DNA from: Bacillota bacterium
GTDB lineage: Bacteria > Bacillota > Clostridia > Christensenellales > UBA1242
Direction of reading: 5' to 3'
Length of the DNA: 64,000 nt
Assembly: GCA_009787915.1 (NCBI GenBank)
Contig: WQSK01000001.1
Location: forward strand, 7,119-71,118
Below are positions 313-60,451 of this stretch, in pieces (position 1 is the stretch's first letter; every line of letters begins with the position of its first letter). A program made the position numbers and the translations under genes. The notes under the pieces are model-generated. The model ran no database searches and had not been told where the DNA came from. It was given only the letters and a program-made list of their open reading frames with translations.

Positions 313-735
313 GTGACTTGTAATAAATGTAAAAGCGATTACACGATAAAGTACGGTTTGCGTTCGGGCAAACAGTGCTACTTGTGCAAAGGTTGTGGTT
401 TTCAGTTTTCTACTGACCATGCTTTTTCTGACCACGAAAAACGTGTGGCATTGACACTTTGCTGTTTTGGGCTATCAATGCGAAAGATTGGGAAGTTGCT
501 TGGGTACAGCCACGTAACAATACGAAACTGGATACGGTCTTTTGAAGAAAAACGTGAGGAACCAAACGAGGATTACTTTATGGACCTTGACGAGATTTGC
601 GAGTTCCTAAAAAAAAGAAACAGCGACCCGCGGTTTAGTAAACGGTTTTCGTCTATGCAAGATGCGTTTACATGGAACGTAGAAAACGAGATGTCTAAGG
701 TCATTGAAAAGGTTATGTCATCCCTCACTATATAA
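313..735 (+). CDS. Zn-ribbon plus HTH protein, IS1 InsA-like (no DDE transposase ORF follows)
   Basis: CxxC...CxxC ribbon (CNKCKS...CYLCKGCGFQF) followed by an HTH-like segment (LSMRKIGKLLGYSHVTIRNWI). GTG start lies 5 nt after TGaTATAAT (302-307). Confidence 0.6.
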   Translation: MTCNKCKSDYTIKYGLRSGKQCYLCKGCGFQFSTDHAFSDHEKRVALTLCCFGLSMRKIGKLLGYSHVTIRNWIRSFEEKREEPNEDYFMDLDEICEFLKKRNSDPRFSKRFSSMQDAFTWNVENEMSKVIEKVMSSLTI

Positions 736-760
736 ACATAAACTATTGTAGGTACATATT

Positions 761-1120
761 ATGGAAGATTTTGAACTGGAAATAGAAACTTGCTGTGTGG
801 AACTTGGGGCAGTTGCGAGCAACACTGTGGACATAGACCTTGTAGAGGTCAATATTCAAAAGAGTGCAAGTTGCGGATGGACAATGCCAGGGGGTGTTAT
901 TACATTTTGTAATTTAATCACAAATCAAAGTGAAACCGACCTAGAGCAAGTAATCTTCCGCGATAAACTGGATACAAGATTTCAATATGTGCAAGACAGT
1001 TTCACGGTTGACGGGGTTTCAAAAACGCCAACCGTCGACAACAACACAATCGTGTACTGTATAGATTTTTTGCAAGGTCAATCATGTACAAATATTTGCT
1101 TTAAAGTAAAAACACTATGA
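761..1120 (+). CDS. hypothetical small protein, DUF11/conserved-repeat-domain-like
   Basis: Pattern GVITFCNLITNQSETDLEQVIFRDKLDTRFQYVQDSFTVDG resembles the TIGR01451/DUF11 fold signature. CC pair near the N-terminus. Confidence 0.4.
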   Translation: MEDFELEIETCCVELGAVASNTVDIDLVEVNIQKSASCGWTMPGGVITFCNLITNQSETDLEQVIFRDKLDTRFQYVQDSFTVDGVSKTPTVDNNTIVYCIDFLQGQSCTNICFKVKTL

Positions 1121-1136
1121 AAAAAGGAGCGTAATA

Positions 1137-1646
1137 ATGCCAATAATTTCAAATACTTCAGAGTTGTTATGCAGACCATGTTGTGGTTGCCCGCCCGAGA
1201 GTTGTCAGTGCGATTTTTCGGAACTCGAAGAACGTCTTGATAAACTCGAGGCGCAAATAGAAATCATAGGGCGGTCCGTCGAGATTTCCGATGTCAGAAC
1301 CGTGATGAGTTCAAACCCAAATATGTCAGGGCTTGGTACTTCGGTTATCAGTATCGGACCAACATATAACTATTGGGGCGAGGGTGCACTTAGCGTAGGG
1401 CATCAATGGGCTAATGGTACGACCTATTATTTATCGACCGTTGCAGATTTCCCAGAGTTGGCGTTTTATCAAGGTCAACCAACAATAGGAACCGTTTGGT
1501 TTACAGCCAGTGGCGGGATTCAGTCTATGCCTATATATGTTGACAGTACAGGAATTTATATAAAACCAACAAATAACTTAAACGCGACATCTGGAACGAC
1601 ATTCAAGTTTACCCTGACGTTAATCTTGACAAACGCCATGTTGTAA
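1137..1646 (+). CDS. hypothetical protein with Cys-rich N-terminus and short coiled coil
   Basis: GGAG-type RBS (aaaaggagcgtaataATG). N-terminus is CRPCCGCPPESCQC, then LEERLDKLEAQIEI. No recognised family. Confidence 0.5.
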   Translation: MPIISNTSELLCRPCCGCPPESCQCDFSELEERLDKLEAQIEIIGRSVEISDVRTVMSSNPNMSGLGTSVISIGPTYNYWGEGALSVGHQWANGTTYYLSTVADFPELAFYQGQPTIGTVWFTASGGIQSMPIYVDSTGIYIKPTNNLNATSGTTFKFTLTLILTNAML

Positions 1647-1661
1647 TGTTAGTTATTCGTC

Positions 1662-2213
1662 ATGGGTGAAGATTCAGAATTGTTAGACGAACTGGACGAA
1701 AACGGCCAGTTTTTAGGACACACAGTAAAGCGTGGAGATGCGCACAAGAACGGAAACTGGCATAGGGCGGTTGTTTTATATTTGGTGAGCAGTAAAAACC
1801 AAGTCCTTTTACAACGTCGTAGTTTAAAAAAGAAAAAGTGGCCAGGCTATTGGGATTTGACAAGCGGCGGTCACGTCGATGCGGGGGAGTTGGGCTTGGG
1901 CTCGGCTATTCGCGAGTTGGAAGAAGAACTTGGTATTTCGGTCGAGGTAAAAGATGTTCGATATATCGCAGGCCGTCGTACCCAGACGGAAAAGTTCGGG
2001 ATGGTTGACAAACATCATAATGAATACTATGTTGCTTTCAAAGACGTAGACGTTAAAGATATTAAACTTAACAAAGACGAAGTCGAGGAAGCAAAATGGT
2101 TTGATTTAAGCGAATTCAAAAAAATGGTAAAGGCCAAAGACGAGAAACTTACCGCGAAATGGGCGGCGTATGAATTTTTGCTTAAATACATAGACACATA
2201 TGGCAAGAATTGA
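1662..2213 (+). CDS. Nudix hydrolase
   Basis: Nudix box GGHVDAGELGLGSAIRELEEELGI (GX5EX7REUXEEXGU). Confidence 0.85.
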   Translation: MGEDSELLDELDENGQFLGHTVKRGDAHKNGNWHRAVVLYLVSSKNQVLLQRRSLKKKKWPGYWDLTSGGHVDAGELGLGSAIRELEEELGISVEVKDVRYIAGRRTQTEKFGMVDKHHNEYYVAFKDVDVKDIKLNKDEVEEAKWFDLSEFKKMVKAKDEKLTAKWAAYEFLLKYIDTYGKN

Positions 2214-2250
2214 TTTGCCAAAAACGATATAATTGGGTGATACTTTTGTT

Positions 2251-6571: not shown

Positions 6572-6625
6572 GCGTATTGACACGCGCATAAAATAGTATA
6601 TATTGTTTCAAGGAGTGGCTGAGGA

Positions 6626-6946
6626 ATGAAAGAAAGAAACATCTGGATTATGGTTTTGTTGACGGTCGTGACGGCAGGGTTTTATTTGCTTTTTTGGAAC
6701 GCGATGTTCCAAGGGCAACTAAAAGAACAAACTAAAAAAGGCTTTGGCCCGATAGTTCATTTGTTGATGTTGGTTTTTACATTTGGGATTTATGCGATTT
6801 ATTGGCAATATGCGGCGGGGTCACGCCTTGCTGAAATTGGGGCAAAAGACAGGTCGGTTTTGTATCTTGCGCTTTGTTTTATTTGGATGTCGTGGCTTAA
6901 CCCGTTTTTGATGCAGAACCAGGCAAACAATATCCACAAGGCATAA
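6626..6946 (+). CDS. small membrane protein, DUF4234-like
   Basis: AAGGAG RBS. Two TM segments carrying a GFYLLFW / GIYAIYW pattern. Confidence 0.5.
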   Translation: MKERNIWIMVLLTVVTAGFYLLFWNAMFQGQLKEQTKKGFGPIVHLLMLVFTFGIYAIYWQYAAGSRLAEIGAKDRSVLYLALCFIWMSWLNPFLMQNQANNIHKA

Positions 6947-6961: not shown

Positions 6962-7225
6962 ATGAACGAAAGAACACTTGAACAAAGAATTGACGAAATT
7001 GAACAGCGCAACCAGCGGGTTGAAAATGATAAGGCATGGGAACGCAGTATATTCCGTATCGGGTTTATTCTGGCTTTGACCTATGGGTTTGCGGTTTTGT
7101 ATATTTGGTTGGCCGATACAACAAATCCGTTCCTTGGTGCGGTGGTTCCGACTGTTGGCTTTTTATTATCGGTTCAATCGTTAAAGTTGGTTAAGATTGT
7201 GTGGCTTAAAATTAGAAACAAATAG
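6962..7225 (+). CDS. small membrane protein
   Basis: AGGTG RBS. N-terminal charged helix followed by two hydrophobic helices. Confidence 0.45.
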   Translation: MNERTLEQRIDEIEQRNQRVENDKAWERSIFRIGFILALTYGFAVLYIWLADTTNPFLGAVVPTVGFLLSVQSLKLVKIVWLKIRNK

Positions 7226-7257
7226 ACAATGAAACATATTTACTGTACAATCTTTGT

Positions 7258-8835
7258 ATGGAAAAAAAGAAGGTACTTGTTGGTCTTTCGTGGCCGTACG
7301 CGAACAGTCGCTTGCACATTGGGAATGTTGCCTCGAGTTTACCTGCGGATGCGATTGCGCGCTATCACCGTATGATTGGGAATCGGGTGTCTTTTGTGAC
7401 GGGCTCGGATTGTTACGGTACGCCGATTACTGTGAGGGCAAGCAAAGAGGGTTTGACCCCGACCGAGATTGCGGAAAAATATCACGCACATCATGCCGCG
7501 GATTTTAAGGCTTTTGATTTTTCATTTGATAATTATGACAAGACTTTGTCGGCGCGCCACCACAAATTTGTCCGTGAGTTCCACGAACAAATGTACAAAG
7601 GCGACATGGTTTATGAAAAGGCGGCTCCACAGTTTTATTGCGACAAGTGTAAAAAGTTTTTGCCAGACAGATATGTAGAGGGGATTTGTCCGCATTGTAA
7701 AAAGGCGTCTAAAGGGGATTCATGTGATTCTTGCGGAAAGATTTTAGAACCTGAGGAATTGCTTTCACCAAAATGTATTACTTGTAACGGTACACCTGTT
7801 GCAAAAGACCAGACACAACTGTATATCAAATTTTCTTCAATGCAAAAAGCCATAGAAAAATATTATAAGGAACGCTGTGATAAATGGACGACCAATGCCG
7901 TTGGGTTGACGGGTCGGTATTTGAACGAGGGGTTACGTGACCGCGCGATTACTCGAAGCATTGAATGGGGGATTGATGTTCCGAAAAAAGGTTTTGAGGA
8001 CAAACGCATTTATATTTGGGCGGAAAACGTGTTGGGATATCTGTCTGCTTCGGAACCAGAGTTTTTTTCAAAACAGAGCAAAGACAATTTGCACTATTAT
8101 GTCCATGGCAAAGACAACATTCCGTTCCATGCGATTATTTTGCCTGGCTTGATAATGGCGCATGGCGGGGGATATCATTTGCCTGATATGATTGTTGCAA
8201 ACGAATATGTGACAATCTGCGGAGATAAGATATCCAAAAGCAAGGGAAATTTTATAAGTGCACATACGCTTCATGAAAACCTTGATGTTGATATGGTGCG
8301 ATATTTCTTTTTGCGTGTTATGAACGACAAGCGTGACACAAATTTCACAGCCGAAGATTTTGTTAATACAATAAATGGTGAGTTGGTTAATAATTTTGGT
8401 AATTTGGTTAATAGGACGCTTTCGTTTGTCGCGACGAAATTCGACCGTGTTATTCCAAAATCCACAAATGACAAAGTGGTTCTTGGAGAAATCAAGAATA
8501 TAAAAACCCAGTATAATGACTTAATGATGTTGGGGAGAACGAGTTTGGCACTTAAAGTTGTTATGGATTTGGTGAACTTTGGGAACAAGTATTTTGCGGA
8601 CAACAAACCGTGGACACTTGTTGGCGATGTACCAACCGCCGACCTTAAAAAAGCCCAAGCCGTAATCGGAAATGTCGTGTCAATAATATTAGAATGCACA
8701 GTAATGCTTTCCCCATTCATTCCGCGTGGAACCGCAAAGGTTTTGTCTTGGATAGGCGGGGACAAGTTGGGGGATATCGAGGTGTTGTATCAAAGGCTTG
8801 ATTTAAAAGATATTAAGGAGAAATTAAAGATATGA
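7258..8835 (+). CDS. metG: methionyl-tRNA synthetase (short form, no C-terminal tRNA-binding domain)
   Basis: HIGH-type LHIGN, KMSKS-type KISKSKGN, Zn knuckles CPHCKK...CDSCGK. Confidence 0.95.
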   Translation: MEKKKVLVGLSWPYANSRLHIGNVASSLPADAIARYHRMIGNRVSFVTGSDCYGTPITVRASKEGLTPTEIAEKYHAHHAADFKAFDFSFDNYDKTLSARHHKFVREFHEQMYKGDMVYEKAAPQFYCDKCKKFLPDRYVEGICPHCKKASKGDSCDSCGKILEPEELLSPKCITCNGTPVAKDQTQLYIKFSSMQKAIEKYYKERCDKWTTNAVGLTGRYLNEGLRDRAITRSIEWGIDVPKKGFEDKRIYIWAENVLGYLSASEPEFFSKQSKDNLHYYVHGKDNIPFHAIILPGLIMAHGGGYHLPDMIVANEYVTICGDKISKSKGNFISAHTLHENLDVDMVRYFFLRVMNDKRDTNFTAEDFVNTINGELVNNFGNLVNRTLSFVATKFDRVIPKSTNDKVVLGEIKNIKTQYNDLMMLGRTSLALKVVMDLVNFGNKYFADNKPWTLVGDVPTADLKKAQAVIGNVVSIILECTVMLSPFIPRGTAKVLSWIGGDKLGDIEVLYQRLDLKDIKEKLKI

Positions 8836-9977: not shown

Positions 9978-9978
9978 C

Positions 9979-13586: not shown

Positions 13587-14522
13587 ATGAGAAAAGAAGG
13601 ACAAAAAGTTAAAAACGTAAATGGCTTTAGCCGAGTGGCGACGTTGCTTGTAGGCACACGTAGGTGCGAGGCTACGAACTATTTTACAAAAGAAGTGTTG
13701 TGCAAAAAATTCGATGATTATATAGAGTTAAAAAAGAAAGAAGGCAAAGAATACAACTATCGCGATATTGCGCTCGCGGTTTTGGTGCGGATTTTTTATT
13801 TAAGACCCCAATTGAACCGCTTTGTTGTAAAGGGCAAAATCTATCAGCGTCATCATGTTGATGTGGCGTGCACCGTGCACAAGAATTTAAGAACAGGCGA
13901 AAAGGAAACGGCGATTAAATGCAGGTTCCACGGCAACGAAACATTGGACGAGGTCAAAGAACGTGTTGACTCGGCACTTAAAAAAGCGGTGTTCGAGGAA
14001 AACTCTACGGACAAGTTCGTTGACAGCCTTTTGGGTCGCGCACCGAACTTTTTGTTGCGCTTTATCGTTTGGACATTTAGGATTCGCGATAGGTGGGGAT
14101 TATTGTCAGACAAATTCATGTTTGAAACCAGCCCAATGCACACAAGCATTTTCTACGGCGACCTCAAAAGTATCCACCTAGGGGCAACTTGGCACCATTT
14201 GTACGAGTTCGGGAATTGTGGTTTTTTCCTAACAATGGGAAAGGAAACATGGAAACCCGTTGTATGCCAAAAGACACAAAAAATCACCGCAGAAAAAGTG
14301 GTGGAACTAGGGATTTCTATTGACGAGCGATTTATCGACGGTCTGACCTATAGCCAAATGCTTAAGACGATTGACAGGATTTTAGAGGACCTAACAGTTT
14401 TGGAAACTCCTGCACTCCCCGAGGACAGAAAATGGCCATATAACACAAGCGAGAAATTAAAACGCCTTCCGCGCCGTGCGAAAAAACAGGCAAGGCGTGC
14501 GGGCTTGACAATCGCCTCATAA
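13587..14522 (+). CDS. stand-alone 2-oxoacid dehydrogenase acyltransferase catalytic-domain-like protein
   Basis: C-terminal region resembles the E2/CAT fold. The expected DHRxxDG motif reads DERFIDG, so the catalytic His is replaced. No lipoyl domain. Confidence 0.5.
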   Translation: MRKEGQKVKNVNGFSRVATLLVGTRRCEATNYFTKEVLCKKFDDYIELKKKEGKEYNYRDIALAVLVRIFYLRPQLNRFVVKGKIYQRHHVDVACTVHKNLRTGEKETAIKCRFHGNETLDEVKERVDSALKKAVFEENSTDKFVDSLLGRAPNFLLRFIVWTFRIRDRWGLLSDKFMFETSPMHTSIFYGDLKSIHLGATWHHLYEFGNCGFFLTMGKETWKPVVCQKTQKITAEKVVELGISIDERFIDGLTYSQMLKTIDRILEDLTVLETPALPEDRKWPYNTSEKLKRLPRRAKKQARRAGLTIAS

Positions 14523-14540
14523 CGTGATATAAATTTCTCA

Positions 14541-16138: not shown

Positions 16139-16156
16139 TAATGTTATCATATCGGC

Positions 16157-39660: not shown

Positions 39661-39752
39661 TTGACATATTATACCACACAATATATAATAATACTATACC
39701 TCGCTGCCACTTGACTTTTTACCCTAAGGGGTAAGGGGTAAGGGGTTTTTTA
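39661..39752 (+). promoter_or_regulatory. consensus promoter plus conserved 5' leader with three AAGGGGT heptads (copy 1)
   Basis: TTGACA (39661-66), 17-nt spacer, TATAAT (39684-89). The leader begins ATACCTCGCTGCCACTTG and ends TTACCCTAAGGGGTAAGGGGTAAGGGGTTTTTT. Confidence 0.7.
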
Positions 39753-39788
39753 TTGCCTAAATTTCCCCTCAATCAAAAGGAGAAATTT

Positions 39789-41936: not shown

Positions 41937-41951
41937 TGGTATAATAACATT

Positions 41952-44701: not shown

Positions 44702-44732
44702 CTTTTCGGACAAAACATGGTATGATTAACCC

Positions 44733-45149: not shown

Positions 45150-45208
45150 AATTATCGGTTTTTGTTTACATGTTGTGTTTTTACAGGGCGTAGGCTATAA
45201 TCAAATAT

Positions 45209-48019
45209 ATGATTCAAAAGATTGTTGTTAAGGGTGCGCGCGAAAATAATTTGAAAAACCTTGATGTCGAGATTCCGCGCGGAAAACTGGTTGTAATGAC
45301 GGGTGTGTCAGGGAGCGGTAAATCGACCCTCGCGTTTGGTACTATTTTTGCGGAAGGGCAACGCCGTTTTATGGAAAGTTTGTCATCCTATGCGCGCCAG
45401 TTTTTGGGCAACAGCGGTAAACCCGCGGTTGATAGTATCGAGGGCTTAAGTCCGTGTATTGCGATTAACCAAAAAACCACAAGCCACAATCCGCGCTCTA
45501 CGGTTGGAACGGTTACCGAAATTTATGATTACCTAAGATTGCTGTATTCCCGTATCGGGGAGGCCTATTGCCCTGATTGTGGGAAAAAAATCTCGCGCCA
45601 AAGCATTGACCAAATTGTTACGGGGGCGTTTTCGGCTTTTAAAGAAAAGTTAGTTTTGATAGAGGCACCTGTTGCCCGTGGTCAAAAAGGTACGTTTCAA
45701 AAAGAATTCGAGAGTTACCGCCGTTCGGGCTACGCGCGCGTAAAGGTAGACGGTAATGTATATATGTTGGATGAGCCTATTGATTTGGACAAAAATATCC
45801 GCCACACTATTTCGGTTATTGTAGACCGTGTTAAAGTTATTGATGACGAACGAAGCCGTATAACCGAATCGGTCGAGTCTGCGGTTCGTTTGACCGACGG
45901 TTTGGTTGTGTTCTCGCACGAGGACGATGAAAAATTGTTTAGCAACAAACACTCTTGCGTAGATTGCGGTATCAGTATCGAGGATTTGGAACCGCGTGCT
46001 TTTAGTTTCAACAGCCCATTTGGCGCGTGCAACAATTGCACAGGGCTTGGGTTTACTTTTGAAATTGACGAGAGCATGATTATACCCGATAAGGACAAAT
46101 CTTTGGCAGATGGCGCAATTGTTGCAAGTGGCTGGAACTTTGACGGCGGTAAAGTAACAGATATGACGTTCAAAGCAATCAGCAAGCACTTTAACATTAG
46201 CATGAGCACAAAAGTAAAAGACCTCCCACCAGATGTGATGCACAAAATTCTTTATGGGTGTGACGAGAAGATAAACTATGTTTGGGATAGTCAAACCCAA
46301 CACCACGAATACATGGGCAAGTACGAGGGGATAATTCCGAACCTCAAACGTCGATTCAAGGAAACCCAAAGCGAATGGATGCGCGCCGAGATTGGGAAAC
46401 TTATGTTGAAAACAACTTGTCCAAAATGCAATGGGATGAGGCTACGTAGAGAGTCGCTTGCCGTACGTGTTGGCGGAGTAAACATTTCTGAACTTTGCCA
46501 CAAGTCAATTAAAGACACAATTCTGTTTTTTGAAAATTTGAGTTTGTCAAAAACCCACCAAACGACCGCAGAGCGTATAATCAAAGAAGTTCGCGAACGT
46601 CTTAACTTTTTGTCGAATGTCGGTTTGCATTATCTGACGCTTGCAAGGGGTTCAGATACTTTAAGCGGTGGTGAGAGTCAGCGTATTCGTTTGGCTACAC
46701 AAATCGGGAGCGGGCTTGTCGGGGTTTTGTATATTTTGGATGAACCAAGTGTTGGACTTCACCAGCACGATAATGACAAGTTGTTAAAAACCCTTAAGCG
46801 ACTTCGTGATTTGGGGAACACATTGATTGTTGTCGAACACGATGAAGACACAATTAGGGAAAGTGACTTTATCGTTGATATCGGCCCTCGCGCAGGTGTG
46901 CAAGGCGGGAAACTTGTGGCTGCGGGTACGGTTGCGGAAGTTTCCGCGTGTAAAGAAAGTTTGACAGGGCAGTATCTCTGTGGAACCAGAAAAATCGAGG
47001 TACCGAAACAATACAGACCTCTGTCAGAAAAATATATTGAAATCACAGGCGCGTCGGAGAACAACCTTAAGGGCGTTGATGTCAAGTTTCCGCTTGGTGT
47101 CTTGACCGCCGTAACGGGCGTTTCGGGGAGTGGGAAAAGTTCTTTGGTAAACAAAACTTTGTATCCTGCGCTACACAATATTTTGCATAAAGGGATTGCG
47201 AGTGTAGGCAAGCATGATATGTTGTCGGGCTTTGAGCATATTGACAAAATCATCAACATCGACCAATCCCCAATCGGGCGAACCCCGCGCAGTAACCCCG
47301 CGACATATACCGAGGTATTTGGGCCTATCCGTGATTTGTTTGCAAACACACGCGATGCGAAAGAGAGGGGTTTTGCCCCTGGGCGGTTTAGTTTCAACGT
47401 TCGCGGAGGGCGGTGCGATAATTGTGACGGTGATGGGATTAAAAAAATCGAGATGCACTTTCTCCCTGACGTTTTTGTTCCTTGCGAGGTTTGTTTAGGA
47501 AAACGATTCAACCGCGAAACCTTGGAGGTTCGTTACAAGGGCAAGACTATCCACGACGTTTTGGAAATGACGGTTGATGAAGCCGTTGTATTTTTTGAAC
47601 CGATACCGCAAATTTACAAAAAACTGAAAACCATAAAAGACGTTGGTCTTGGCTATGTTTGTTTGGGGCAGGCGGCAACGACACTTAGTGGTGGAGAGGC
47701 ACAACGGGTGAAACTTGCGAAAGAATTGTCGAAAACAAGCACGGGAAAAACCCTGTATATTTTGGACGAGCCAACAACGGGCTTGCACAGTTACGACGTG
47801 CATAAACTTATTGGGATTATTCAACGTTTGGTTGACGCAAAAAATACTGTCGTGGTAATAGAGCACAACCTTGATGTTATTAAGGTCTGTGACCACATCA
47901 TCGACCTTGGTCCAAGCGGCGGTGATGACGGCGGTACGATTATTGCAACGGGAAATCCACGCGAGATTGCCAAGGTGAAAAACAGTTTAACTGGACAACA
48001 CCTTGCAAAGATGGTGTGA
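45209..48019 (+). CDS. uvrA: excinuclease ABC subunit A
   Basis: Two ABC NBDs (GVSGSGKST/S), Zn modules (CxxC), LSGGE signatures. Confidence 0.97.
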   Translation: MIQKIVVKGARENNLKNLDVEIPRGKLVVMTGVSGSGKSTLAFGTIFAEGQRRFMESLSSYARQFLGNSGKPAVDSIEGLSPCIAINQKTTSHNPRSTVGTVTEIYDYLRLLYSRIGEAYCPDCGKKISRQSIDQIVTGAFSAFKEKLVLIEAPVARGQKGTFQKEFESYRRSGYARVKVDGNVYMLDEPIDLDKNIRHTISVIVDRVKVIDDERSRITESVESAVRLTDGLVVFSHEDDEKLFSNKHSCVDCGISIEDLEPRAFSFNSPFGACNNCTGLGFTFEIDESMIIPDKDKSLADGAIVASGWNFDGGKVTDMTFKAISKHFNISMSTKVKDLPPDVMHKILYGCDEKINYVWDSQTQHHEYMGKYEGIIPNLKRRFKETQSEWMRAEIGKLMLKTTCPKCNGMRLRRESLAVRVGGVNISELCHKSIKDTILFFENLSLSKTHQTTAERIIKEVRERLNFLSNVGLHYLTLARGSDTLSGGESQRIRLATQIGSGLVGVLYILDEPSVGLHQHDNDKLLKTLKRLRDLGNTLIVVEHDEDTIRESDFIVDIGPRAGVQGGKLVAAGTVAEVSACKESLTGQYLCGTRKIEVPKQYRPLSEKYIEITGASENNLKGVDVKFPLGVLTAVTGVSGSGKSSLVNKTLYPALHNILHKGIASVGKHDMLSGFEHIDKIINIDQSPIGRTPRSNPATYTEVFGPIRDLFANTRDAKERGFAPGRFSFNVRGGRCDNCDGDGIKKIEMHFLPDVFVPCEVCLGKRFNRETLEVRYKGKTIHDVLEMTVDEAVVFFEPIPQIYKKLKTIKDVGLGYVCLGQAATTLSGGEAQRVKLAKELSKTSTGKTLYILDEPTTGLHSYDVHKLIGIIQRLVDAKNTVVVIEHNLDVIKVCDHIIDLGPSGGDDGGTIIATGNPREIAKVKNSLTGQHLAKMV
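48000..48019 (+). repeat. 20-bp direct repeat, copy 1 (3' end of uvrA)
   Basis: ACCTTGCAAAGATGGTGTGA, identical to 48911-48930. Confidence 0.9.
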
Positions 48020-48910: not shown

Positions 48911-48930
48911 ACCTTGCAAAGATGGTGTGA
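48911..48930 (+). repeat. 20-bp direct repeat, copy 2
   Basis: ACCTTGCAAAGATGGTGTGA, identical to the uvrA 3' end. Immediately followed by TGgTATAAT (48938-43). Confidence 0.9.
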
Positions 48931-48948
48931 GAAATGGTATAATTCTGT

Positions 48949-49500
48949 ATGAATATTGGTGTAGACGTAGATGGTGTTTTGACAAGGCTTGTTGAATTTG
49001 TGCGGGCGAGGACAGGACTCGAAAAATTTGAAGATTACTATGGTTTTGTTCAATCGTTTGTTGGAAACGGGTCAAACAAAGATTTTTGGGCTGGGAGCAT
49101 TTGGGATTATACAAAGTTACCGCCGATTGATGGTGCGGTTAAAAACTTGAAGAAGTTGCGACAAGACGGGCACAAGATAATCATAAATACTAACCGTTGG
49201 TTTTACGAGAGGGAAGATGAACTGGGTAACAAAATGCGTGAGGCTGTTCACAAGTGGTTTGATAAATACGAAGTGCCTTATGACGAGTTTGTCTTTGCAA
49301 AAGGGGACAAAGCGAAAGTTGTGAAAGAATATAAACTTGATATCCATATTGATGATGCTCCGCACGAGATTCAGGTTGTTAGACCGCATATACCTGTGAT
49401 TGTTTTTGACGCGGATTATAACAAAGAGTTCGCAGGCGAAAATATTATCAGGGTCAAAAACTGGGATGAAATATACAGGGTAATAAGTTCTTGGGGTTGA
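48949..49500 (+). CDS. HAD-superfamily 5'(3')-deoxyribonucleotidase-like hydrolase
   Basis: Motif I IGVDVDGVLT. NT5C-like size and layout. Confidence 0.65.
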   Translation: MNIGVDVDGVLTRLVEFVRARTGLEKFEDYYGFVQSFVGNGSNKDFWAGSIWDYTKLPPIDGAVKNLKKLRQDGHKIIINTNRWFYEREDELGNKMREAVHKWFDKYEVPYDEFVFAKGDKAKVVKEYKLDIHIDDAPHEIQVVRPHIPVIVFDADYNKEFAGENIIRVKNWDEIYRVISSWG

Positions 49501-51048: not shown

Positions 51049-51088
51049 AGCCCGACCTCTTGACAGTTGGGTTTTTTTGTGTTATAAT
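51049..51088 (+). promoter_or_regulatory. hairpin fused to a consensus promoter (module copy 2)
   Basis: Stem AGCCCGAC (51049-56) / GTTGGGTT (51066-73) followed by a T-run. TTGACA (51060-65), 17-nt spacer, TGtTATAAT (-10 at 51083-88). About 93 percent identical to 30231-30269. Confidence 0.65.
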
Positions 51089-51094
51089 CATAGC

Positions 51095-51421
51095 ATGAAT
51101 TTAGAAACTGGAATACAAGAAATTAAAGAGTTAGTTAAGAAATATCAGAACGGAGAAATCAGCCTCGAAGTATTTGGGCAGGAGCGCAAGGCAATAGAGA
51201 ATGGACATGCCCAAAATTTGTACTCCCAGTGGCGAAAAACCGCAGACGCAGTTACATCAAGAGTGCAAAGGCAAAATGATGAAGCCGAAAAAGAACTAAT
51301 GACGAAGATTAATGGTGGTGTTTGTCCGCCAGAATATTGCGGTCATCTGAATCCAAGCAGATTCAGTATTTGCAAAGCCCCAAGTTGCCTAAACCCAAAG
51401 TGTGTTGAACCCAAATTTTAG
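51095..51421 (+). CDS. hypothetical protein with Cys-rich C-terminus
   Basis: ATG lies 6 nt after the TATAAT. The track GTG at 51077 is rejected because it sits inside the promoter. Confidence 0.5.
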   Translation: MNLETGIQEIKELVKKYQNGEISLEVFGQERKAIENGHAQNLYSQWRKTADAVTSRVQRQNDEAEKELMTKINGGVCPPEYCGHLNPSRFSICKAPSCLNPKCVEPKF

Positions 51422-51569: not shown

Positions 51570-51603
51570 TGAACGAGTGCAATAAACTTTTATATCATAC
51601 TGT

Positions 51604-52161
51604 ATGCGACAAGTCAAGCCTGTTGCACTAGTTGGCTTGATGTTTTGTGAAAGGGTGTGCTATGATGGTGGCATGATTATTTGCAAAGGAATACTTGGCG
51701 AGGAGAAAACGATTGAGGCGAAGGACCTTAAATTTGCGGTATCGGTTTATGCCGTTGCGATTCGTGAAAACAAGATTTTGATTTCCCCGCAATGGTGTGA
51801 TAACGGATATGACTTCCCAGGCGGACATATCGATTTGGGCGAGGTCCACACAGACGCCCTTGTGCGCGAGGTCAAAGAAGAAACTGGTATGGATATAAAA
51901 CCTGGTAACCCGATTGCGGTGGGTACGTCTTTTTTTGTGACGCCTAGGCGTAAAGAATGTCATCAATCGGTACAAATTTATTTTGAAGCAACTGTTGTGG
52001 GCGGGGAGATTTCGACCTCTGGCTTTGACGAAGGGGAGTCGGCATATGCCAAGGAAGCAAAATTTGTTACTTTAAAAGAACTAAAAAAAATGAAGTGGAT
52101 GAATACAAACCAAAAACCTATGACCGAGATTTTGCGGTATCTTGAAGGCAAGACAAAATGA
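51604..52161 (+). CDS. Nudix hydrolase
   Basis: Nudix box GGHIDLGEVHTDALVREVKEETGM. ATG lies 5 nt after TATCAT (51593-98). Confidence 0.8.
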   Translation: MRQVKPVALVGLMFCERVCYDGGMIICKGILGEEKTIEAKDLKFAVSVYAVAIRENKILISPQWCDNGYDFPGGHIDLGEVHTDALVREVKEETGMDIKPGNPIAVGTSFFVTPRRKECHQSVQIYFEATVVGGEISTSGFDEGESAYAKEAKFVTLKELKKMKWMNTNQKPMTEILRYLEGKTK

Positions 52162-52880
52162 TTGCAAAAATTACGGATGATAAAACCATTGTTGTTTATG
52201 ACAAGAGCCAATTCGATTGGTACGCAATAAGGAACTCGGGTCAGATTTTTGTTGACCCGCCATGTGTTGTTACCGAGGAATCCAACAAAATTGTGATTAA
52301 AGCAACTGGTAAAAAAGACAGTCGGTGGCTTTTTGATTTCTTTGATTTAGGAACGGATTACAATGCGATAAAAAAAGACTTGGCGGGCTTTGGACTCTTG
52401 TGCGACGCGATGAAGTTTGGTTTCGGAATCAGGATTTTAAAACAACCCTTTGTGTCTTGCGCGATTTCGTTTATAATCTCGGCGAACAACAATATAAAAA
52501 GGTTCGCCAAAACAATCGAACAAATTGATTTTGATGATTTGGAAAAATATACGGTGGAGGACTTTGCAAGGATGGGGTGCGGATATCGTGCGCCGTATCT
52601 ATATAACGCTGTGCGCCAACTTAAAAGTATGTCGTTCGAGGAACTAAAAACTTTTGACAACGCGCGATTGAGAAAAACCCTTATGAGCATATCGGGGGTT
52701 GGGCCTAAGGTCGCGGATTGTATTATGTTGTTTGCTTTTCACAGGTTGGATGTGGCACCCGTGGATACGTGGATTGCGCGCGCGAACTTGCCCCAAACAA
52801 TCATGGGGCATAGGTACGCAGGGGTTGCGCAACAATACGTGTTTTACTATTTACAACACTTAAAAAAATCGTTAAAATAA
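52158..52880 (+). CDS. ogg: 8-oxoguanine DNA glycosylase (HhH-GPD, OGG type)
   Basis: ISGVGPKVADCIMLFAF...VAPVDTWI, giving the HhH, catalytic Lys and Asp pattern. Confidence 0.8.
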   Translation: MIAKITDDKTIVVYDKSQFDWYAIRNSGQIFVDPPCVVTEESNKIVIKATGKKDSRWLFDFFDLGTDYNAIKKDLAGFGLLCDAMKFGFGIRILKQPFVSCAISFIISANNNIKRFAKTIEQIDFDDLEKYTVEDFARMGCGYRAPYLYNAVRQLKSMSFEELKTFDNARLRKTLMSISGVGPKVADCIMLFAFHRLDVAPVDTWIARANLPQTIMGHRYAGVAQQYVFYYLQHLKKSLK

Positions 52881-52884
52881 AATC

Positions 52885-53322
52885 ATGCAAATAATAGTCA
52901 ATGTTGTTATTGAAAAAGAGGGCAAAGTCCTTATGGTTCAAGAAAACTGGGGCAAGTTCGTAGGGGTTTGGAATTTCCCAGCAGGACGCCTTGACGAAAA
53001 CGAGGGGGTCTTTGCCGCCGCAATTCGTGAGGCAAAAGAAGAAACAGGCTATGACGTTGAGTTGACAGGTGTGTTGGATATCCAGAATTGTGTCTATCCC
53101 GACAGACACGTTATCCATATTATTTTTACCGCTAAAATTATTGGAGGGGAAATTAAGTTCGACCCCAAAGAAATCATGGATGTAAAATTTATCGAGATTA
53201 AAAAACTTTTGGGTATGGGGGATAAAGAATTGCGGTCAAGCATTTGTCGAAAGGCAACGATTCAGAGGTTGGCGGACAAAAAGGTTTTTCCACTTGAAAT
53301 AGTTAGGGATTTCAAAATATGA
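52885..53322 (+). CDS. Nudix hydrolase
   Basis: Nudix box GRLDENEGVFAAAIREAKEETGY. Confidence 0.8.
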   Translation: MQIIVNVVIEKEGKVLMVQENWGKFVGVWNFPAGRLDENEGVFAAAIREAKEETGYDVELTGVLDIQNCVYPDRHVIHIIFTAKIIGGEIKFDPKEIMDVKFIEIKKLLGMGDKELRSSICRKATIQRLADKKVFPLEIVRDFKI

Positions 53323-53897
53323 TTGAATTTTTTCAAATTCATGTTCCGATGTGGGTTTGGGGGATTAGTCAGGCAGTTGGCTTTGTGGGCATGGTTATAA
53401 TTTTTATCGCGCTCCAACAAAAGTCGAAAACACGACAACTTTATTTACAGTCTTTGGCATTGGTTTTTGCCGTTATAGCAAACTCTTTGATTCTTAACAT
53501 GATACTGGTTGCGAACCTATCTGTGAATGTTATTAAAAATTTTACTTATGCCGTACTTGATTCCCGAAAGGATAAAATAAAAAATTGGACCAAACATTTC
53601 TTTTTTGCCCTGTTCACGGTTTTAAGTTTTACCGTAACATTTCTTGTGTGGTTGTTTTTTAGGGATACCTGGACTTGGTTAAACCTTATAATACTTGTCA
53701 GTGTCGTGGTGATGAATTATGCAAAAGTATACAAAAGCGTCCATTGGGTCAAGTGGGGGATGTTTGCAAATGGTTGGTTGCTTTTGATAAATGCGTTTAT
53801 GTTTGCAAATATAATGGGAGGGATTTCTTCGTTAATAATAATAGTTTCGGTCATAGTCTTTTATATAAAAAGAAAAGAAAAAGAAATTAGGAGTTGA
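53319..53897 (+). CDS. inner-membrane protein, YgjV-like
   Basis: Six hydrophobic helices. N-terminus is similar to the partial gene at 1-202. Confidence 0.5.
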   Translation: MIEFFQIHVPMWVWGISQAVGFVGMVIIFIALQQKSKTRQLYLQSLALVFAVIANSLILNMILVANLSVNVIKNFTYAVLDSRKDKIKNWTKHFFFALFTVLSFTVTFLVWLFFRDTWTWLNLIILVSVVVMNYAKVYKSVHWVKWGMFANGWLLLINAFMFANIMGGISSLIIIVSVIVFYIKRKEKEIRS

Positions 53898-53929
53898 TTT
53901 TGTAAAACATTTATACTATAAATAGTATC

Positions 53930-54142
53930 ATGACTGAACACACTGAAACGCAGAGAATGAAAGACGGAAATTATCTTATTATAAAGTGGAATGTAAGCCC
54001 CATGGGTAGTTGGGAGGTCCGTGCCGCGGAGGTAAAAGATAAAGAAGTGGTCTGGGCTAGGAATGCGCTTGCTGCGGGTGAATCAACAAAGAAAAAAGAT
54101 TTATCTATCGCCAGGGGAAAAATGTACGAAGAACTACACTAA
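53930..54142 (+). CDS. hypothetical small protein
   Basis: ORF preceded by TTGATT, 17-nt spacer, TATAAA, then a 7-nt gap to the ATG. Confidence 0.45.
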   Translation: MTEHTETQRMKDGNYLIIKWNVSPMGSWEVRAAEVKDKEVVWARNALAAGESTKKKDLSIARGKMYEELH

Positions 54143-54707: not shown

Positions 54708-55415
54708 TTAAAGGCTTAGTCCTTGTGAAATATCTTTTTTCAGGTTAATAGGGAATTTGTCGTTTAATTCAAATCGTTCGTCGGTCAGGGCAAGGTTTGT
54801 GAATATACTGCCAATCAAGCCCTGCATTTTGCTATAGACATTTACATGTTTAATTGTCTTGTCGGATTTTAAAACTTTGTTATCTTTTTCCAAACTGCAA
54901 TGGCAGGGTATCGCAACCGCTGGTGTCCCTGTCTTTGTGGCAAAATCAAACTGGTCAACAAGGGCAAGGCAAACCCTTTTCGATATTAACAAATCCATGT
55001 TTTGGTTTACATGTGGCGGATAAAAATAACTTTGTGAGGAAAAACACTCTGGCAAAACTTCAGGTTTTTGGCACGTATGTTCCCAGACATACATAGATTC
55101 GAGTTGCGCCCGAAAAGCATCCCACACGCCAATTGCCTCTACCAAAGTGTCGCCTGGACCAATATGTCCAAGGCTTTTCATATTTTTGATACCAGGTAAC
55201 AGTTTAAGAATCTTGTTTATCTTTAATGCAGACTCGGCGTTATAAGCAATTGCGTTCTTGCACATATCTGCCTCCTCGTCTAACTCGCTTAAAACGAATG
55301 TCTTGAATTTATAGAATCCCAAAAAGTTCTTGAAACTCAATCTGCTTTTCAAAAATTTGTCGATAAACTCTTGTGCCAGGATAGTTTTTCTGCATAATTC
55401 GATTGTACTCATCAT
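54708..55415 (-). CDS. hypothetical protein
   Basis: ORF. ATG at 55415/55412 preferred because it lies downstream of TGtTATATT. The track start at 55517 would overlap the upstream gene by 73 nt. Confidence 0.5.
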   Translation of the reverse strand: MMSTIELCRKTILAQEFIDKFLKSRLSFKNFLGFYKFKTFVLSELDEEADMCKNAIAYNAESALKINKILKLLPGIKNMKSLGHIGPGDTLVEAIGVWDAFRAQLESMYVWEHTCQKPEVLPECFSSQSYFYPPHVNQNMDLLISKRVCLALVDQFDFATKTGTPAVAIPCHCSLEKDNKVLKSDKTIKHVNVYSKMQGLIGSIFTNLALTDERFELNDKFPINLKKDISQGLSL

Positions 55416-55444
55416 GCTTAATATAACACAAAAACCTAGAAAAA

Positions 55445-55975
55445 TCAATACTTTTTTAAAAGTACCGCGTAAGGGCTGGTTGTCTTTGCCAGAGGTTTTT
55501 CTATTTTGACATCCCAATTTTGACCGAGCGATGAAACAAATTTTTCAACCTCAACCGCTTCGCTATCACCGCCTGTGTGACCTGGGTAGACAACAATCGC
55601 GATTCTTCCGTTGGGGGAGAGTTTACCGCAAAGTTTTTTCAACGCCATGATAGTTGTATCGGGCTTTGTAATTACAGATTTGTCCGAGCGGGGCAGATAC
55701 CCCAAGTTAAAAATCGCGGCCTTGATTTCGCCGTCAATATATTTGTCAAGGTTCTCGTGCCCGTCCTTTAAAAGGGTCGCGGAAAGATTGTTTTGCGATA
55801 ACAACTTGCCCGTGTTTGTGATAGCCAAATCTTGCACGTCAAAAGCGAACACTTTTGCACCTTGTGAGGCTAAAAACACTGTGTCGTGACCATTGCCCAT
55901 TGTCGCATCTACAACTATGTCGCCTTGGTGGATGACTTGTTTCAGGAAATCGTGCGCGATTTGTATTGGATTCAT
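55445..55975 (-). CDS. mnmM: SAM-dependent methyltransferase, YtqB/MnmM-like
   Basis: GDIVVDATMGNGHDTVFLA and AAIFNLGYLPRSDKS closely match my recollection of B. subtilis YtqB. Confidence 0.75.
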   Translation of the reverse strand: MNPIQIAHDFLKQVIHQGDIVVDATMGNGHDTVFLASQGAKVFAFDVQDLAITNTGKLLSQNNLSATLLKDGHENLDKYIDGEIKAAIFNLGYLPRSDKSVITKPDTTIMALKKLCGKLSPNGRIAIVVYPGHTGGDSEAVEVEKFVSSLGQNWDVKIEKPLAKTTSPYAVLLKKY

Positions 55976-56032
55976 AAAAATTATGTTATCACGTATTGAT
56001 TATTTAAAACAAGTGTGATAAAGTGTAATGTT

Positions 56033-57776: not shown

Positions 57777-57810
57777 TCCTTTTTGCCCTTAACAAGCAAC
57801 CGATCGTAGG

Positions 57811-57941
57811 GCTGCCTTTTGGGCTTAGCCGACAAACCGCACAACCGCCCAAGGCAGTCAAGGTGGAAGTTCCAAGGGAAAACTACCTTGACGGTCTTGG
57901 GCGTGTTGTGCTACCAACATCGGCTATGCCCAAAAGGGAGC
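57811..57941. other. 130-nt extended imperfect hairpin, single-strand-origin-like
   Basis: Nested helices: 57815-24/57928-37, 57826-32/57920-26, 57839-45/57905-11, 57846-53/57896-903 and 57857-64/57885-92. Confidence 0.6.
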
Positions 57942-58402
57942 ACACCAACTGTACCACAAGTGATGGGAAAAGTTAGGTTTTTGCTGTGTAAAGTATTGGT
58001 TTTGTGTAGGTAAAGTCATGGGACAAATTAAAAACGATTTTTTAAAATTCTAGTAGTCAAAATGGGTACTTCTTGCGTTCTCCATGTAGGGAAAGTTTTT
58101 TTGATTTACCCCCTCACTTTTGACCTTTGTCGTGACCTACTGTTAAGGCAAAAGAAAAACAAATGACAGCAAATCTTTAAGAGGTGGCTGTGCAAAAAAC
58201 TATTCGAGTACAAATCGGCAGTTATCGGCTTCGTGACAAAGTTACGAGGTCGCTTTTGCCATGCGTGCCGATTTATGCAGAAGTCACAACAAAGGTAGCA
58301 GTAAGTCTTGCGGAACGAGTGGCAAGCCTTCTAGTCGATTGCTATCAAATGAGCAAAGCGAATGAGCCGAGAGTGTGCAAACACACTTGCGACCGCACAG
58401 TG

Positions 58403-58488
58403 GTGGCGAGAGACGAGGCTTGCCCGTCTCCGCCACGTGCGCCGCAAGGGGTTGCTAGCGAAGCGGTTGTCATACTTGATATTGGCAA
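58403..58488 (+). other. GC-rich 12-bp hairpin plus small hairpin presenting ACTTGATATT in its loop; candidate nick/double-strand origin
   Basis: Stem 58403-15 / 58425-36. TGTCA (58469-73) / TGGCA (58484-88) flank the loop TACTTGATAT. The element lies 34 nt upstream of the rep ATG. Confidence 0.45.
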
Positions 58489-58521
58489 CACTTAAAAATT
58501 CTAAAAGAGGTGGATAATCAC

Positions 58522-59448
58522 ATGGACAAGTTCATGTCAAAACGTGTTGAGAGGGTTTTGAAACCTAACGCACATTTATTATCTAAACAAAAGAGAGAGC
58601 AAGTAAATACTCGGATAAATCGGTTTAAGTTCTTTACTGAAATCATTTACTATCACGAACCTTTTGATATCCTGACTGGTAAGAAAGATTATAACTGGGT
58701 AGATACTGAAACTGGCAAAATCATCTCAGCGAGTAAACGAAAAGAGATAACAGACCAAGAGCAAATTGACGAATACGCAAGTCGTGGCGAGATTTTGGAA
58801 ATCGACAACGGATTTGACCGCAGTCAATACGAGAGTTGTCGCAGAGCAAAAGACAATTTTTATGGATATGCTTTGTGTAATGACTGGGTTTATTTTTGTA
58901 CTTTTACGATTGCGAAAAGCGAACATGACCATGATGACAAAGCAACAAAATACTACTGGCAAATGTTCCGCCAAAAGTTACAAAAGAGATTTCCAACTGT
59001 TAAGATCCTTGCAGTTCCTGAACGCCACGCCAAAGGCAACATTCATTTTCATGCTTTACTTGGGGATTGTGACTTAGAAAATATTTTAGTCGTGGCAATC
59101 AACCCACACACAAGCGAACCTGTATTACAAAGTGGTCGACAAGTTTATAATTTGCCACTCTGGGACAAAGGTTTTTCAACTGTTGTTAAAATCGACCAAG
59201 AGAGTATTGAAAACCAGTTGAAAGCAATCAACTACATTATTGGATATGTGACCAAGCAAGAGAACAGCATTGGGCTTAATCAGAAACGCTATTATCGAAC
59301 TAGAAACTTGGATTTCAAAAACACCGAGATAAAGTTTACTGACAAAGCGAAATATGAGAGTCTGCTATTAAGTACGTTTGATATAAACGCAAAACTCGTC
59401 AAACACAAAGAGAACGACAGAATGATTGTTTTTAGGGTGTACAATTAA
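58522..59448 (+). CDS. HUH rolling-circle replication initiator (two-Tyr, phiX gpA / gokushovirus VP4-like)
   Basis: Motif 1 FCTFTIA, motif 2 HFHALLG, motif 3 [11 protein letters not shown] 58522 follows an AGAGG RBS. Confidence 0.75.
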
Positions 59449-59473
59449 GAAGGTTAATGGTACAATCACAACG

Positions 59474-60451
59474 ATGAAAATCGTTTCATTTTTTGCAGGT
59501 GCTGGGGGTCTTGACCTTGGCTTTGAAAAAGCGGGGTTTCACACTGTTTGGGCGAATGAATACGATAAAACAATTTGGGCTACTTATGAAAAAAATTTTC
59601 CTAATTCTAAACTTGATAAACGAAGCATAACAGATGTATCTCCCAAAGAAGTTCCCGATTGTGACGGAATCATTGGCGGACCGCCATGTCAAAGTTGGAG
59701 TGAAGCCGGTGCGGGGCGTGGCATTGATGACGATAGGGGTAAATTGTTTTTAGACTATATTAGGATATTAAAAGATAAAAAGCCAAAGTTTTTCTTGTGT
59801 GAAAATGTGGGCGGTATGCTTTTAGATAAACACAAAGTTAATTTCGATAAGTTTATTTCCGAGTTTGAAAGTGCAGGATATAATGTTTCTTGGCAACTTG
59901 TTGACGCTAATGATTTTGATGTCCCTCAAAATCGCAAGCGTGTCATCATCGTGGGATATAGAAAAGATTTAAATAAAAAGTTTGAATTTCCACCTGTGCA
60001 AGAATATAAACCAAATTTGAAAGACGCTATATGGGATTTGCGACAAGCCCAACCTGCTAAACAGCATAATAAGTCATGGGGGCTTGAATTACCAATTCCG
60101 AATCACGAATATATGAATGGCGGATTCTCTACAATCTTTATGTCACGTAATCGTGTACGTTCTTGGGACGAACCTTCTTTCACTATCCAAGCAGGTGGCA
60201 GACACGCCCCTATCCACCCACAAGCCCCTAAAATGCTTTTTGTCGAACAAAACAAAAGAATATTCGTTCCCGGTAAAGAAGATGATTATAGGCGGTTGTC
60301 CGTGCGTGAGTGTGCAAGAATACAAACATTCCCCGATAGTTTTATTTTTATTTATAATGACATTGCCGACGGTTACAAAATGGTGGGTAATGCCGTGCCA
60401 GTAAACCTAGCGTATGCGATTGCAAAAAAGATAAAGGAAGATTTGAAATGA
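59474..60451 (+). CDS. DNA (cytosine-5) methyltransferase, M.HaeIII-like
   Basis: Motif [46 protein letters not shown]. The TRD segment [33 protein letters not shown] resembles M.HaeIII as I recall it. Confidence 0.9.

Follow-up and report, generated by a model that had tools for sequence, protein, structure and literature searches.

The question raised by this locus is where, relative to its promoters, the mRNAs of an uncultured gut clostridial lineage begin. The locus is a 64 kb stretch of the Bacillota bacterium contig WQSK01000001.1 (hereafter the window, to which the analysis was confined as far as the source genome is concerned), in which an original prediction had described promoters ending so close to the start codons of first-in-unit genes, rpsL, metG, serS and uvrA among them, that the transcripts would have no 5′ untranslated region (UTR). 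We find this promoter placement to be supported by a spacing peak, by promoter anatomy and by conservation, and consider it very probable that the sigma-A promoters put the start codon at +1 for most transcription units, which would amount to leaderless initiation. The geometry, its statistics and its conservation are established by the sequence itself; from them we infer the positions of the transcription start sites (TSSs) and the mode of ribosome loading.

Spacing between Promoters and Start Codons

Transcription by RNA polymerase normally begins about 7 nt past the −10 element, with a preference for a purine, the canonical −10-to-TSS distance being 6, so that for a −10 placed as described here the A of the ATG would be expected to be +1. 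All 1959 ATGs on both strands were scored with a matrix combining the −10 element, the TGn extension and the −35 element at a spacer of 16–18, the −10 being required to end 5–8 nt before the ATG (this distance, counted in nt between the end of the −10 and the start codon, is denoted d below), and a start was taken to pass if it reached the 99th-percentile score. The threshold was passed at d = 5–8 by 13 of 71 longest open reading frame (ORF) starts, left unadjusted, versus 8 of 1915 other ATGs (Fisher p = 8e-15), and several of those eight are corrected starts from the original prediction (51095, 59474, and 55412, which stands beside 55415). The profile over d is sharply peaked, with 3, 6, 3 and 1 genes at d = 5, 6, 7 and 8, respectively, and none or one at any other d from 0 to 40 nt; the tabulation of −10-to-start distances that had been proposed as a check therefore gives, within the 64 kb window, a peak at 5–8 nt. 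Among the ~20 top-scoring ATGs (of 1959, at d = 5–8), the majority stand at the head of a long ORF as its first ATG. Leaderless-type geometry is found in total at ~16–20 of 71 genes (~23–28%; about 16 strong cases and four or so weaker ones), and most genes heading operons in the window carry such a promoter. The original prediction under-counted it, missing at least six strong sites (41952, 27414, 14541, 34210, 52885 and 30825); its own 12 sites are all present at the coordinates and with the hexamers given, nine of them in the top 1% of ATGs.

As far as sequence can tell, these are sigma-70/sigma-A promoters, with a TTGACA-like −35, a 16–18 bp spacer, a TATAAT-like −10 and an optional TGn, and the −35, the 17±1 spacer, the TGn and the −10 co-occur at the leaderless-type sites. 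An independent promoter scan arrived at the same places: its best sites (≥10/12 matches plus TG), ending at 16150, 41945, 44726, 48943 and 51088, coincide with leaderless-type starts, with 12/12 + TG at 51060–51088, 11/12 + TG at 41917–41945, and 10/12 + TG at 16121–16150, 44698–44726 and 48914–48943. ATG is the start codon in 19 of 20 candidates, the exception being the GTG at 313, and a pyrimidine immediately precedes the start codon (position −1) in 23 of 28 ATG starts that lack a Shine–Dalgarno sequence (SD), compared to 8 of 17 SD-led starts. Beyond this pyrimidine, a position-by-position base profile of the SD-less ATG starts adds little, because the 5–8 nt spacing jitter blurs it. In their first 35 nt, leaderless-type genes show the same weak folding as SD-led genes, and 35-mers taken from internal in-frame ATGs fold more strongly (p = 3e-4).

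AT-rich intergenic DNA is full of TATAAT-like hexamers, and it can be asked whether starts were simply picked after them, such that chance and cherry-picking account for the pattern. The loose scan rises barely above shuffles overall (52 vs 39, 28 vs 33, and 56 vs 38), the totals of loose promoter matches, and likewise of terminator matches, being near shuffle expectation and uninformative alone. Three of the 12 sites in the original prediction, moreover, lie only within the top 2.5–20% of all ATGs, the starts 51095, 59474 and 55415 had been shifted to suit the geometry, and, as a caveat, three of the 12 are weak or need a shifted start. However, 1000 dinucleotide shuffles of the 50-nt upstream regions gave on average 0.17 passing starts and never more than 2, as compared to the 13 observed among 70 unadjusted longest-ORF starts, and with the sharp spacing peak this refutes an origin by chance. 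The −35 and TGn co-occur with the −10, as noted above, and control sequences of 50 kb gave 0 hits in E. coli and 8 hits in the AT-richer C. acetobutylicum pSOL1, only one of which opens an ORF, so that the density of ORF-start hits per 10 kb is 2.3 (15 hits) in the window vs 0.2 in pSOL1. Furthermore, the geometry is conserved among orthologs (see below), and Pfam backs the shifted start at 59474, where DNA_methylase positions 1–323 align to residues 1–321 of the protein begun there. We consider the probability of a chance origin to be negligible.

From Promoter to Ribosome

In the pathway that we propose, transcription would start from a housekeeping sigma-A promoter, often TGn-extended, whose −10 ends 5–8 nt (mode 6) before the ATG. 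The resulting mRNA would have a 5′-terminal AUG, no 5′ UTR and no SD, its TSS being placed by the position of the −10 and by the pyrimidine-then-A pattern at −1/+1. If E. coli, Mycobacterium and Deinococcus are a guide, ribosomes carrying initiator tRNA would bind this leaderless mRNA directly, and downstream operon genes would use a canonical AAGGAG/GGAGG SD or coupling to the overlapping or abutting gene before them.

The promoters could also be real and nevertheless produce SD-less, very short leaders, or serve a downstream start codon, with the 30S subunit loaded otherwise. The spread of d over 5–8, and up to 9 in relatives (L026, L002), fits this, as do the gene at 18243, with a good promoter 12 nt upstream and no SD, and the second in-frame ATG 1–23 codons downstream in 27414, 51604 and 55415. 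On the other hand, the most frequent d, 6, equals the canonical discriminator length, a pyrimidine at −1 followed by A at +1 fits the known TSS preference, and the N-terminus is conserved from residue 1 in RpsL, SerS, UvrA, MetG and the 41952 family. The first four of these match family models or orthologs from residue 1–2 (the NCBIfam metG model matches MetG from residue 2) and have no upstream in-frame start. Leaders of 0–5 nt are, in any case, counted as leaderless in the TSS literature (<6 bp; PMC9045289). Very short leaders or downstream starts as the general explanation are thus, in our view, unlikely.

A Mixed Regime of Translation Starts

The starts in the window fall into three classes, namely, those with a leaderless-type promoter, no SD and an ATG, those with a canonical SD, and those with neither signal. 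In the SD class, AAGGAG or GGAGGTG lies 4–13 nt before at least 17 starts, mainly of internal operon genes together with ~4 leadered first genes (gyrB, 6626, 39789 and 61486) that have their own promoter 15–100 nt upstream. This is as the original prediction had it for the internal operon genes, gyrB and rpsG, with AAGGAG/GGAGGTG at 8–11 nt in hisS, gyrB, gyrA, rpsG and others, and its statement that leaderless-type starts have no SD likewise holds, as none carries one. Leaderless-type sites outnumber leadered promoters by ~4:1, and the two signals exclude each other, SD starts being without the −10 geometry and leaderless-type starts without an SD. The no-signal genes (uvrB at 42692, 42297, 53319, 4098 and 13587) overlap or abut the preceding stop codon, which implies translational coupling. 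An A/T-rich motif common to all genes, as in group B-type genomes (Bacteroidetes, non-SD leadered), was not found in the window; against such an assignment, the internal genes are SD-led, and the TA motif comes with a −35 and TGn and is confined to genes separated from the one upstream.

The leaderless-type genes are tightly packed. At 13 of 20 sites no more than 33 nt separate the start from the co-directional gene before it, which is less than the length of a promoter; the −35 of these short-gap sites lies inside the upstream coding sequence, and at 34210 and 52885 the −10 shares bases with the stop codon of the preceding gene. With no leader to accommodate, promoters can occupy very short gaps or the 3′ end of the preceding gene. 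Among Firmicutes, aminoacyl-tRNA synthetase genes are usually controlled by a T-box in a ~200–300 nt 5′ leader. In front of metG there is a gap of 32 nt and in front of serS one of 18 nt, metG, hisS, trpS and cysS (7258–12404) forming one tightly packed operon and serS (16157–17479) standing alone, and Rfam at gathering thresholds found no T-box or other leader RNA in the window, returning two tRNAs only.

Such packing invites the explanation that polycistronic read-through with coupling or re-initiation is the main route, and that the embedded promoters are minor or silent. No convincing intrinsic terminator separates the 13 short-gap sites from their co-directional neighbors, and uvrB (42692), 42297 and 53319, which have neither SD nor promoter, are clearly coupling-dependent. 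The gaps of the coupled genes, however, are −4 to +2, whereas leaderless-type genes lie 9–59 nt away from the gene before them; the near-consensus −35/TGn/−10 is kept at 60–79% protein identity, which would need selection; and the same geometry occurs after divergent genes or tRNAs (51095, 55975 and 51604/51673). We therefore regard read-through as the main route as very unlikely, and return to leaderless initiation in the relatives of the window.

Conservation in Related Loci

Loci of relatives were collected via SerS, RpsL and UvrA, with JGI and ENA metagenome assemblies as the source of most of the related contigs. For RpsL (84%) and UvrA (79%), the closest homologs that carry a name are proteins of metagenome-assembled genomes (MAGs) labelled Christensenellaceae, Clostridia or Firmicutes bacterium, and the SerS relatives at 58–59% identity belong to MAGs titled Bacillota bacterium and Christensenellaceae bacterium. 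These labels place the organism among the uncultured Clostridia, in agreement with the "Firmicutes-like" of the original prediction. A SerS scan of GTDB genomes gave three loci only, indicating that the lineage is poorly represented there. Loci L024–L028 provide ~105 kb of related sequence, and L029, with a UvrA 61% identical, served as the outgroup.

Conservation is clearest for uvrA, in which the −10 ends 5–9 nt before the ATG in all five relatives (L024–L028, 67–79% identity). In L024–L027 a conserved GGGCTATA(A/C)T block is followed, after 5–9 nt, by the ATG, the remaining upstream region having diverged, and L028 has TTGCTA-17-TATAGT-7; the UvrA proteins align from residue 1. The 41952 family has TGnTATACT-5-ATG in three of four relatives (L025, L026 and L027), again with proteins that align from residue 1, the metG ortholog in L007 has TAGACA-17-TGaTATATT-6-ATG, and the 34210 homolog in L025 has TTGACA-17-TAGAGT-7-ATG. 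In the case of serS, the geometry is kept in three of five distinct relatives (L005, L006 and L007) with differing sequences, and L002 has TAAAAT 9 nt from the ATG. Overall, 19 of 80 called starts (24%) in L024–L028 pass the threshold used for the window, vs 0 of 19 in the outgroup.

Several observations nevertheless weigh against a leaderless reading of these sites, or limit its reach. At d = 5 or 8 the TSS could be 1–2 nt off the A, and the −10 elements of rpsL (TATATG), 14541 and 53930 (both TATAAA) are without the conserved final T. ATG 30276, behind a strong promoter at 30241–30269, opens a 70-aa (amino acid) ORF out of frame with a 182-aa long ORF, and geometry alone is therefore no proof of a leaderless gene; as its translation also looks non-protein-like, we keep 30276 as ambiguous. 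With no room for a terminator at the 13 short-gap sites, SD-less read-through transcripts must coexist with any leaderless ones. Among the relatives, serS in L001/L008 has an AAAGGAG SD leader instead, and rpsL in the three nearest relatives (L016, L018 and L020, 88–92% RpsL identity) has the same promoter, TTGACTT...TG(a/t)TATA, followed by a 27–50 nt leader with an AAGGAG SD. Finally, any genome-wide statement is an extrapolation from 64 kb.

In the rpsL alignment, the window has a 34-column gap exactly at the position of the relatives' leader, and leaderless rpsL thus looks like a recent loss of that leader. More broadly, the SD-led or leaderless state varies gene by gene among close relatives (rpsL, serS, uvrB and the 41952 family). 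It may be that in an uncultured, Christensenellaceae-like clade of Clostridia, defined here by a UvrA identity of ≥67% to the window, leaderless initiation is the default for operon-first genes, including housekeeping genes, together with compaction and loss of leader-based control, and that the switch between the SD-led and leaderless states is recent and ongoing; we would give this broader proposal an even chance.

Relation to Known Leaderless Systems

The classical leaderless mRNAs, lambda cI and Tn1721 tetR, are isolated cases in SD-dominated genomes, in which ribosomes bind the 5′-terminal AUG. The mechanism that we propose is the same (5′-AUG, no SD), but its occurrence in the window is systematic, and includes aminoacyl-tRNA synthetases, uvrA and rpsL.

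A systematic counterpart is group C of GeneMarkS-2, to which 90% of Actinobacteria, 97% of Deinococcus-Thermus and 36 of 1064 (3.4%) Firmicutes belong (PMC6028130). As in group C (M. tuberculosis, Deinococcus deserti), a Pribnow box lies 6–8 nt before first-in-operon starts, and internal or leadered genes have an SD; a quarter or more of group C operons are leaderless, and in the 64 kb of the window there are ~16–20 leaderless-type promoters vs ~4 leadered ones. We make this comparison by promoter geometry. Unlike the bare TAnnnT of high-GC group C genomes, the lineage of the window (Clostridia of 43% guanine–cytosine (GC) content) has full TTGACA + TGnTATAAT sigma-A promoters.

Within the Firmicutes, "TA-led" genes have been described in 56 of 209 genomes, at a mean of 4.2% of genes and a maximum of 16.6% (Zheng et al. 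2011, PMC3160421), with a low-GC signal, e.g., in Lactococcus lactis, that consists of a TG-extended TAtAAT ~10 bp from the start (PMC3160421). The sites studied here resemble these TA-led genes in having TGn + TATAAT ~12 bp before the start codon, and lead to the same leaderless inference, whereas their share, ~23–28% of window genes and 24% of relatives' starts, is nearer to the 19–39% of Actinobacteria/Deinococcus. In TSS maps of Clostridium phytofermentans (PMC5171806) and three solventogenic clostridia (PMC9045289), 2–4% of TSSs are leaderless, and these usually have another upstream TSS and a retained ribosome binding site (RBS). The sigma-A promoter and SD consensus are the same as in these TSS-mapped Clostridia, but the leaderless-type sites of the window are without an RBS. 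Group C membership and clostridial TSS maps alike agree with the view of the original prediction that such a mixed regime is unusual for Firmicutes.

The two papers found to contain both "leaderless" and "Christensenell" have neither term in the title or abstract. What is described here is a known regime in a new lineage and not a new mechanism; as the mechanism is already established, the finding matters for taxonomy and annotation and adds no new concept. If the proposal for the clade holds true, the clade would be a natural system for studying 5′ UTR loss and gain. The gene-by-gene differences in state supply natural pairs in which the transition can be compared, within a phylum that seldom shows leaderless transcripts. 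Leaderless heads on synthetase, DNA-repair and ribosomal-protein units would, moreover, leave no room for T-boxes or other 5′-UTR control.

For annotation, gene callers trained on SDs misplace starts in such genomes. In the window, the ORF track begins three genes too far upstream, at 51077, 59426 and 55517, where 51095, 59474 and 55412 fit, in keeping with the original prediction that ORF-track starts need correction, and for 27414 an automated caller took, in L015, the ATG 15 nt downstream. Several UvrA homologs in the database exceed the others by 30–60 residues, and misplaced starts may be the cause there too. No called protein on record corresponds to the 440-aa SerS read from ATG 16157, whereas TrpS and RpsL of this assembly (ENA ERZ27257340) do have entries; the explanation is either a different start taken by the automated caller or a break of the contig at this point.

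Individual Sites

All sites are listed in Table 1. Three entries of the original prediction need amendment. For metG, the hexamers and position are as described, with a spacer of 17 and not 18. The promoter assigned to 55415 is present, but its −10 ends 4 nt before that codon and 7 nt before the better start, 55412. The sites at 51604 and 53930 exist and are weak, 51673 being far stronger than 51604; both of these ATGs are in frame, and the Pfam NUDIX domain starts at residue 45 of the longer form. The 70-aa ORF at 53930 has no Pfam match and no known family, and the NCBIfam IS1 match of the 313 ORF falls below the family cut-off.

Table 1. Candidate Leaderless-Type Promoters in the Window, Followed by Four SD-Led Contrast Cases (Spacer and d in nt; Lower Case, the n of TGn)
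Feature	Coordinates	Strand	Promoter and start	Score	Remarks
IS1-family transposase N-terminal ORF, start 313 (GTG candidate)	280..315	+	TGaTATAAT-5-GTG	9.9	
metG, start 7258	7223..7260	+	TAGACA-17-TACAAT-6-ATG	9.4	heads metG-hisS-trpS-cysS operon
287-aa ORF, start 14541	14505..14543	+	TTGACA-17-TGaTATAAA-7-ATG	12.4	18-nt gap to upstream gene; −35 within upstream coding sequence
serS, start 16157	16121..16159	+	TTGACG-18-TGtTATCAT-6-ATG	13.9	also in independent promoter scan
236-aa ORF, start 27414	27377..27416	+	TTGATT-17-TGaTATAGT-8-ATG	12.8	
rpsL, start 28164	28128..28166	+	TTGACT-17-TGtTATATG-7-ATG	9.7	
ABC-F type ATPase gene, start 30825	30791..30827	+	TTGTAA-17-TGtTAATGT-5-ATG	8.7	Pfam ABC_tran, ABC_tran_Xtn
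borderline candidate, start 32393	32356..32395	+	TTGACA-18-AATACT-7-ATG	8.5	ATG overlaps upstream stop codon
1696-aa gene, start 34210	34175..34212	+	TTGACA-17-TAATAT-6-ATG	10.5	upstream stop codon within −10
114-aa gene, start 41952	41917..41954	+	TTGAAA-17-TGgTATAAT-6-ATG	15.5	heads uvrB-containing unit
138-aa ORF, start 44733	44698..44735	+	TTGACT-17-TGgTATGAT-6-ATG	14.4	
uvrA, start 45209	45173..45211	+	TTGTGT-17-TATAAT-7-ATG	9.3	
NT5C-like nucleotidase gene, start 48949	48914..48951	+	TTGCAA-18-TGgTATAAT-5-ATG	13.1	
corrected start 51095	51060..51097	+	TTGACA-17-TGtTATAAT-6-ATG	17.5	12/12 consensus; best in window
NUDIX gene, two candidate starts, 51604 and 51673	51570..51675	+	51604: TATCAT-5; 51673: TTGATG-18-TGcTATGAT-6	5.5; 11.9	
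NUDIX gene, start 52885	52850..52887	+	TTTACA-17-TAAAAT-6-ATG	9.7	4-nt gap to upstream gene; upstream stop overlaps last T of −10
70-aa ORF, start 53930 (weak candidate)	53894..53932	+	TTGATT-17-TATAAA-7-ATG	5.6	top 2.6% of ATGs
corrected start 55412	55410..55448	-	TTGATT-17-TGtTATATT-7-ATG	12.3	vs 1.3 for 55415 (d = 4)
rRNA-methylase-family gene, start 55975	55973..56012	-	TTGTTT-18-TGaTAACAT-7-ATG	8.0	Pfam rRNA_methylase
C5 DNA methyltransferase gene, corrected start 59474	59438..59476	+	TGTACA-17-TGgTACAAT-7-ATG	10.3	
6626 (contrast case)	6577..6628	+	TTGACA-16-TATATT, short leader, AAGGAG SD, ATG 6626		
gyrB (contrast case)	21920..21977	+	TTGTCA-17-TGtTATAGT, ~20-nt leader, GGAGGTG SD, GTG start		
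rpsG (contrast case)	28830..28851	+	AAAGGAG SD 9 nt before ATG		internal operon gene
39789 (contrast case)	39661..39791	+	TTGACA-17-TATAAT, ~93-nt leader, AAAGGAG SD, ATG 39789		perfect promoter, 39661–39689

Two further promoters fall outside this list. A promoter at 41295–41323 (TTGACT-17-TGtCATAAT) was dropped as a leaderless site, as 41331 is TAC and not ATG. At 18202–18245, TTGCCA-17-TAGAAT lies 12 nt before ATG 18243 of an ABC exporter gene without an SD, and this gene would have a very short (~5–6 nt) SD-less leader and would not be strictly leaderless.

A module present in two copies, at 30226–30275 and 51042–51094, consists of an A-run, a GCCCGAC...GTTGGG(C/T) hairpin and a T-run, and resembles a bidirectional terminator (−18.5 and −13.3 kcal/mol). 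A TGnTATA(T/A)(A/T) promoter has its −35 TTGACA in the loop and 3′ arm of the hairpin, as does the promoter of 51095, whose hairpin recurs at 30226–30262, and the module appears, from its sequence, to join a terminator and a promoter within ~45 nt.

The leadered gene at 39789 lies downstream of the largest non-coding stretch of the window (39301–39788, 488 nt), which holds a strong terminator (39328–39354) and several GC-rich hairpins such as CCCCCTTTACAAAGGGGG, carries short TCTGGGTTT and GGGGTAA repeats, and gave no match in Rfam.

Neighboring Genes and the Mobile Element

The window has a GC content of 43%, a strong GC skew and ~95% coding density, with nearly all genes on the + strand. The genes identified are the metG-hisS-trpS-cysS operon, smpB, serS, an amidase, two ABC exporters and gyrB-gyrA, then rpsL, an 84-aa ORF and rpsG, the ABC-F ATPase, the 1696-aa protein without a known domain, uvrB and uvrA, and also several NUDIX hydrolases and a tRNA-Ser-linked mobile element with a HaeIII-type restriction-modification system.

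Gene order around rpsL departs from that of the relatives. In the window (28164–29902) rpsL is followed by the unannotated 84-aa ORF, rpsG and then a PRK06851-like ATPase fragment, not by fusA-tuf, and in L016, L018 and L020 the order is rpsL-rpsG-fusA-tuf, preceded by rplK-rplA. The 1696-aa ORF (34210–39300), which has no Pfam domain, covers the only region of flat-to-negative GC skew in the window, and large homologs (1545–1934 aa, 23–30% identity) occupy the same place upstream of the uvrB unit in L024–L027. At 48003–48897, adjacent ORFs of 87 and 209 aa are homologous to single PHP-domain genes (L026 9003–9893; L025 15763–16629), from which it appears that a gene has been split by a stop codon or frameshift, as a pseudogene or through an assembly error. 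Four NUDIX-family hydrolase genes lie in the 64 kb (1662–2213, 4098–4613, 51604–52161 and 52885–53322), two of them with leaderless-type promoters.

Finally, 56174–64000 is a probable integrated mobile element beside a tRNA-Ser (56174–56262). Its genes encode a large serine recombinase (56250–57767, minus strand), a Rep-like protein (58522–59448), the C5 DNA methyltransferase (59474–60451) and a HaeIII-family restriction endonuclease (60448–61404), and the GC content falls to 36.5% in the last 4 kb of the window.

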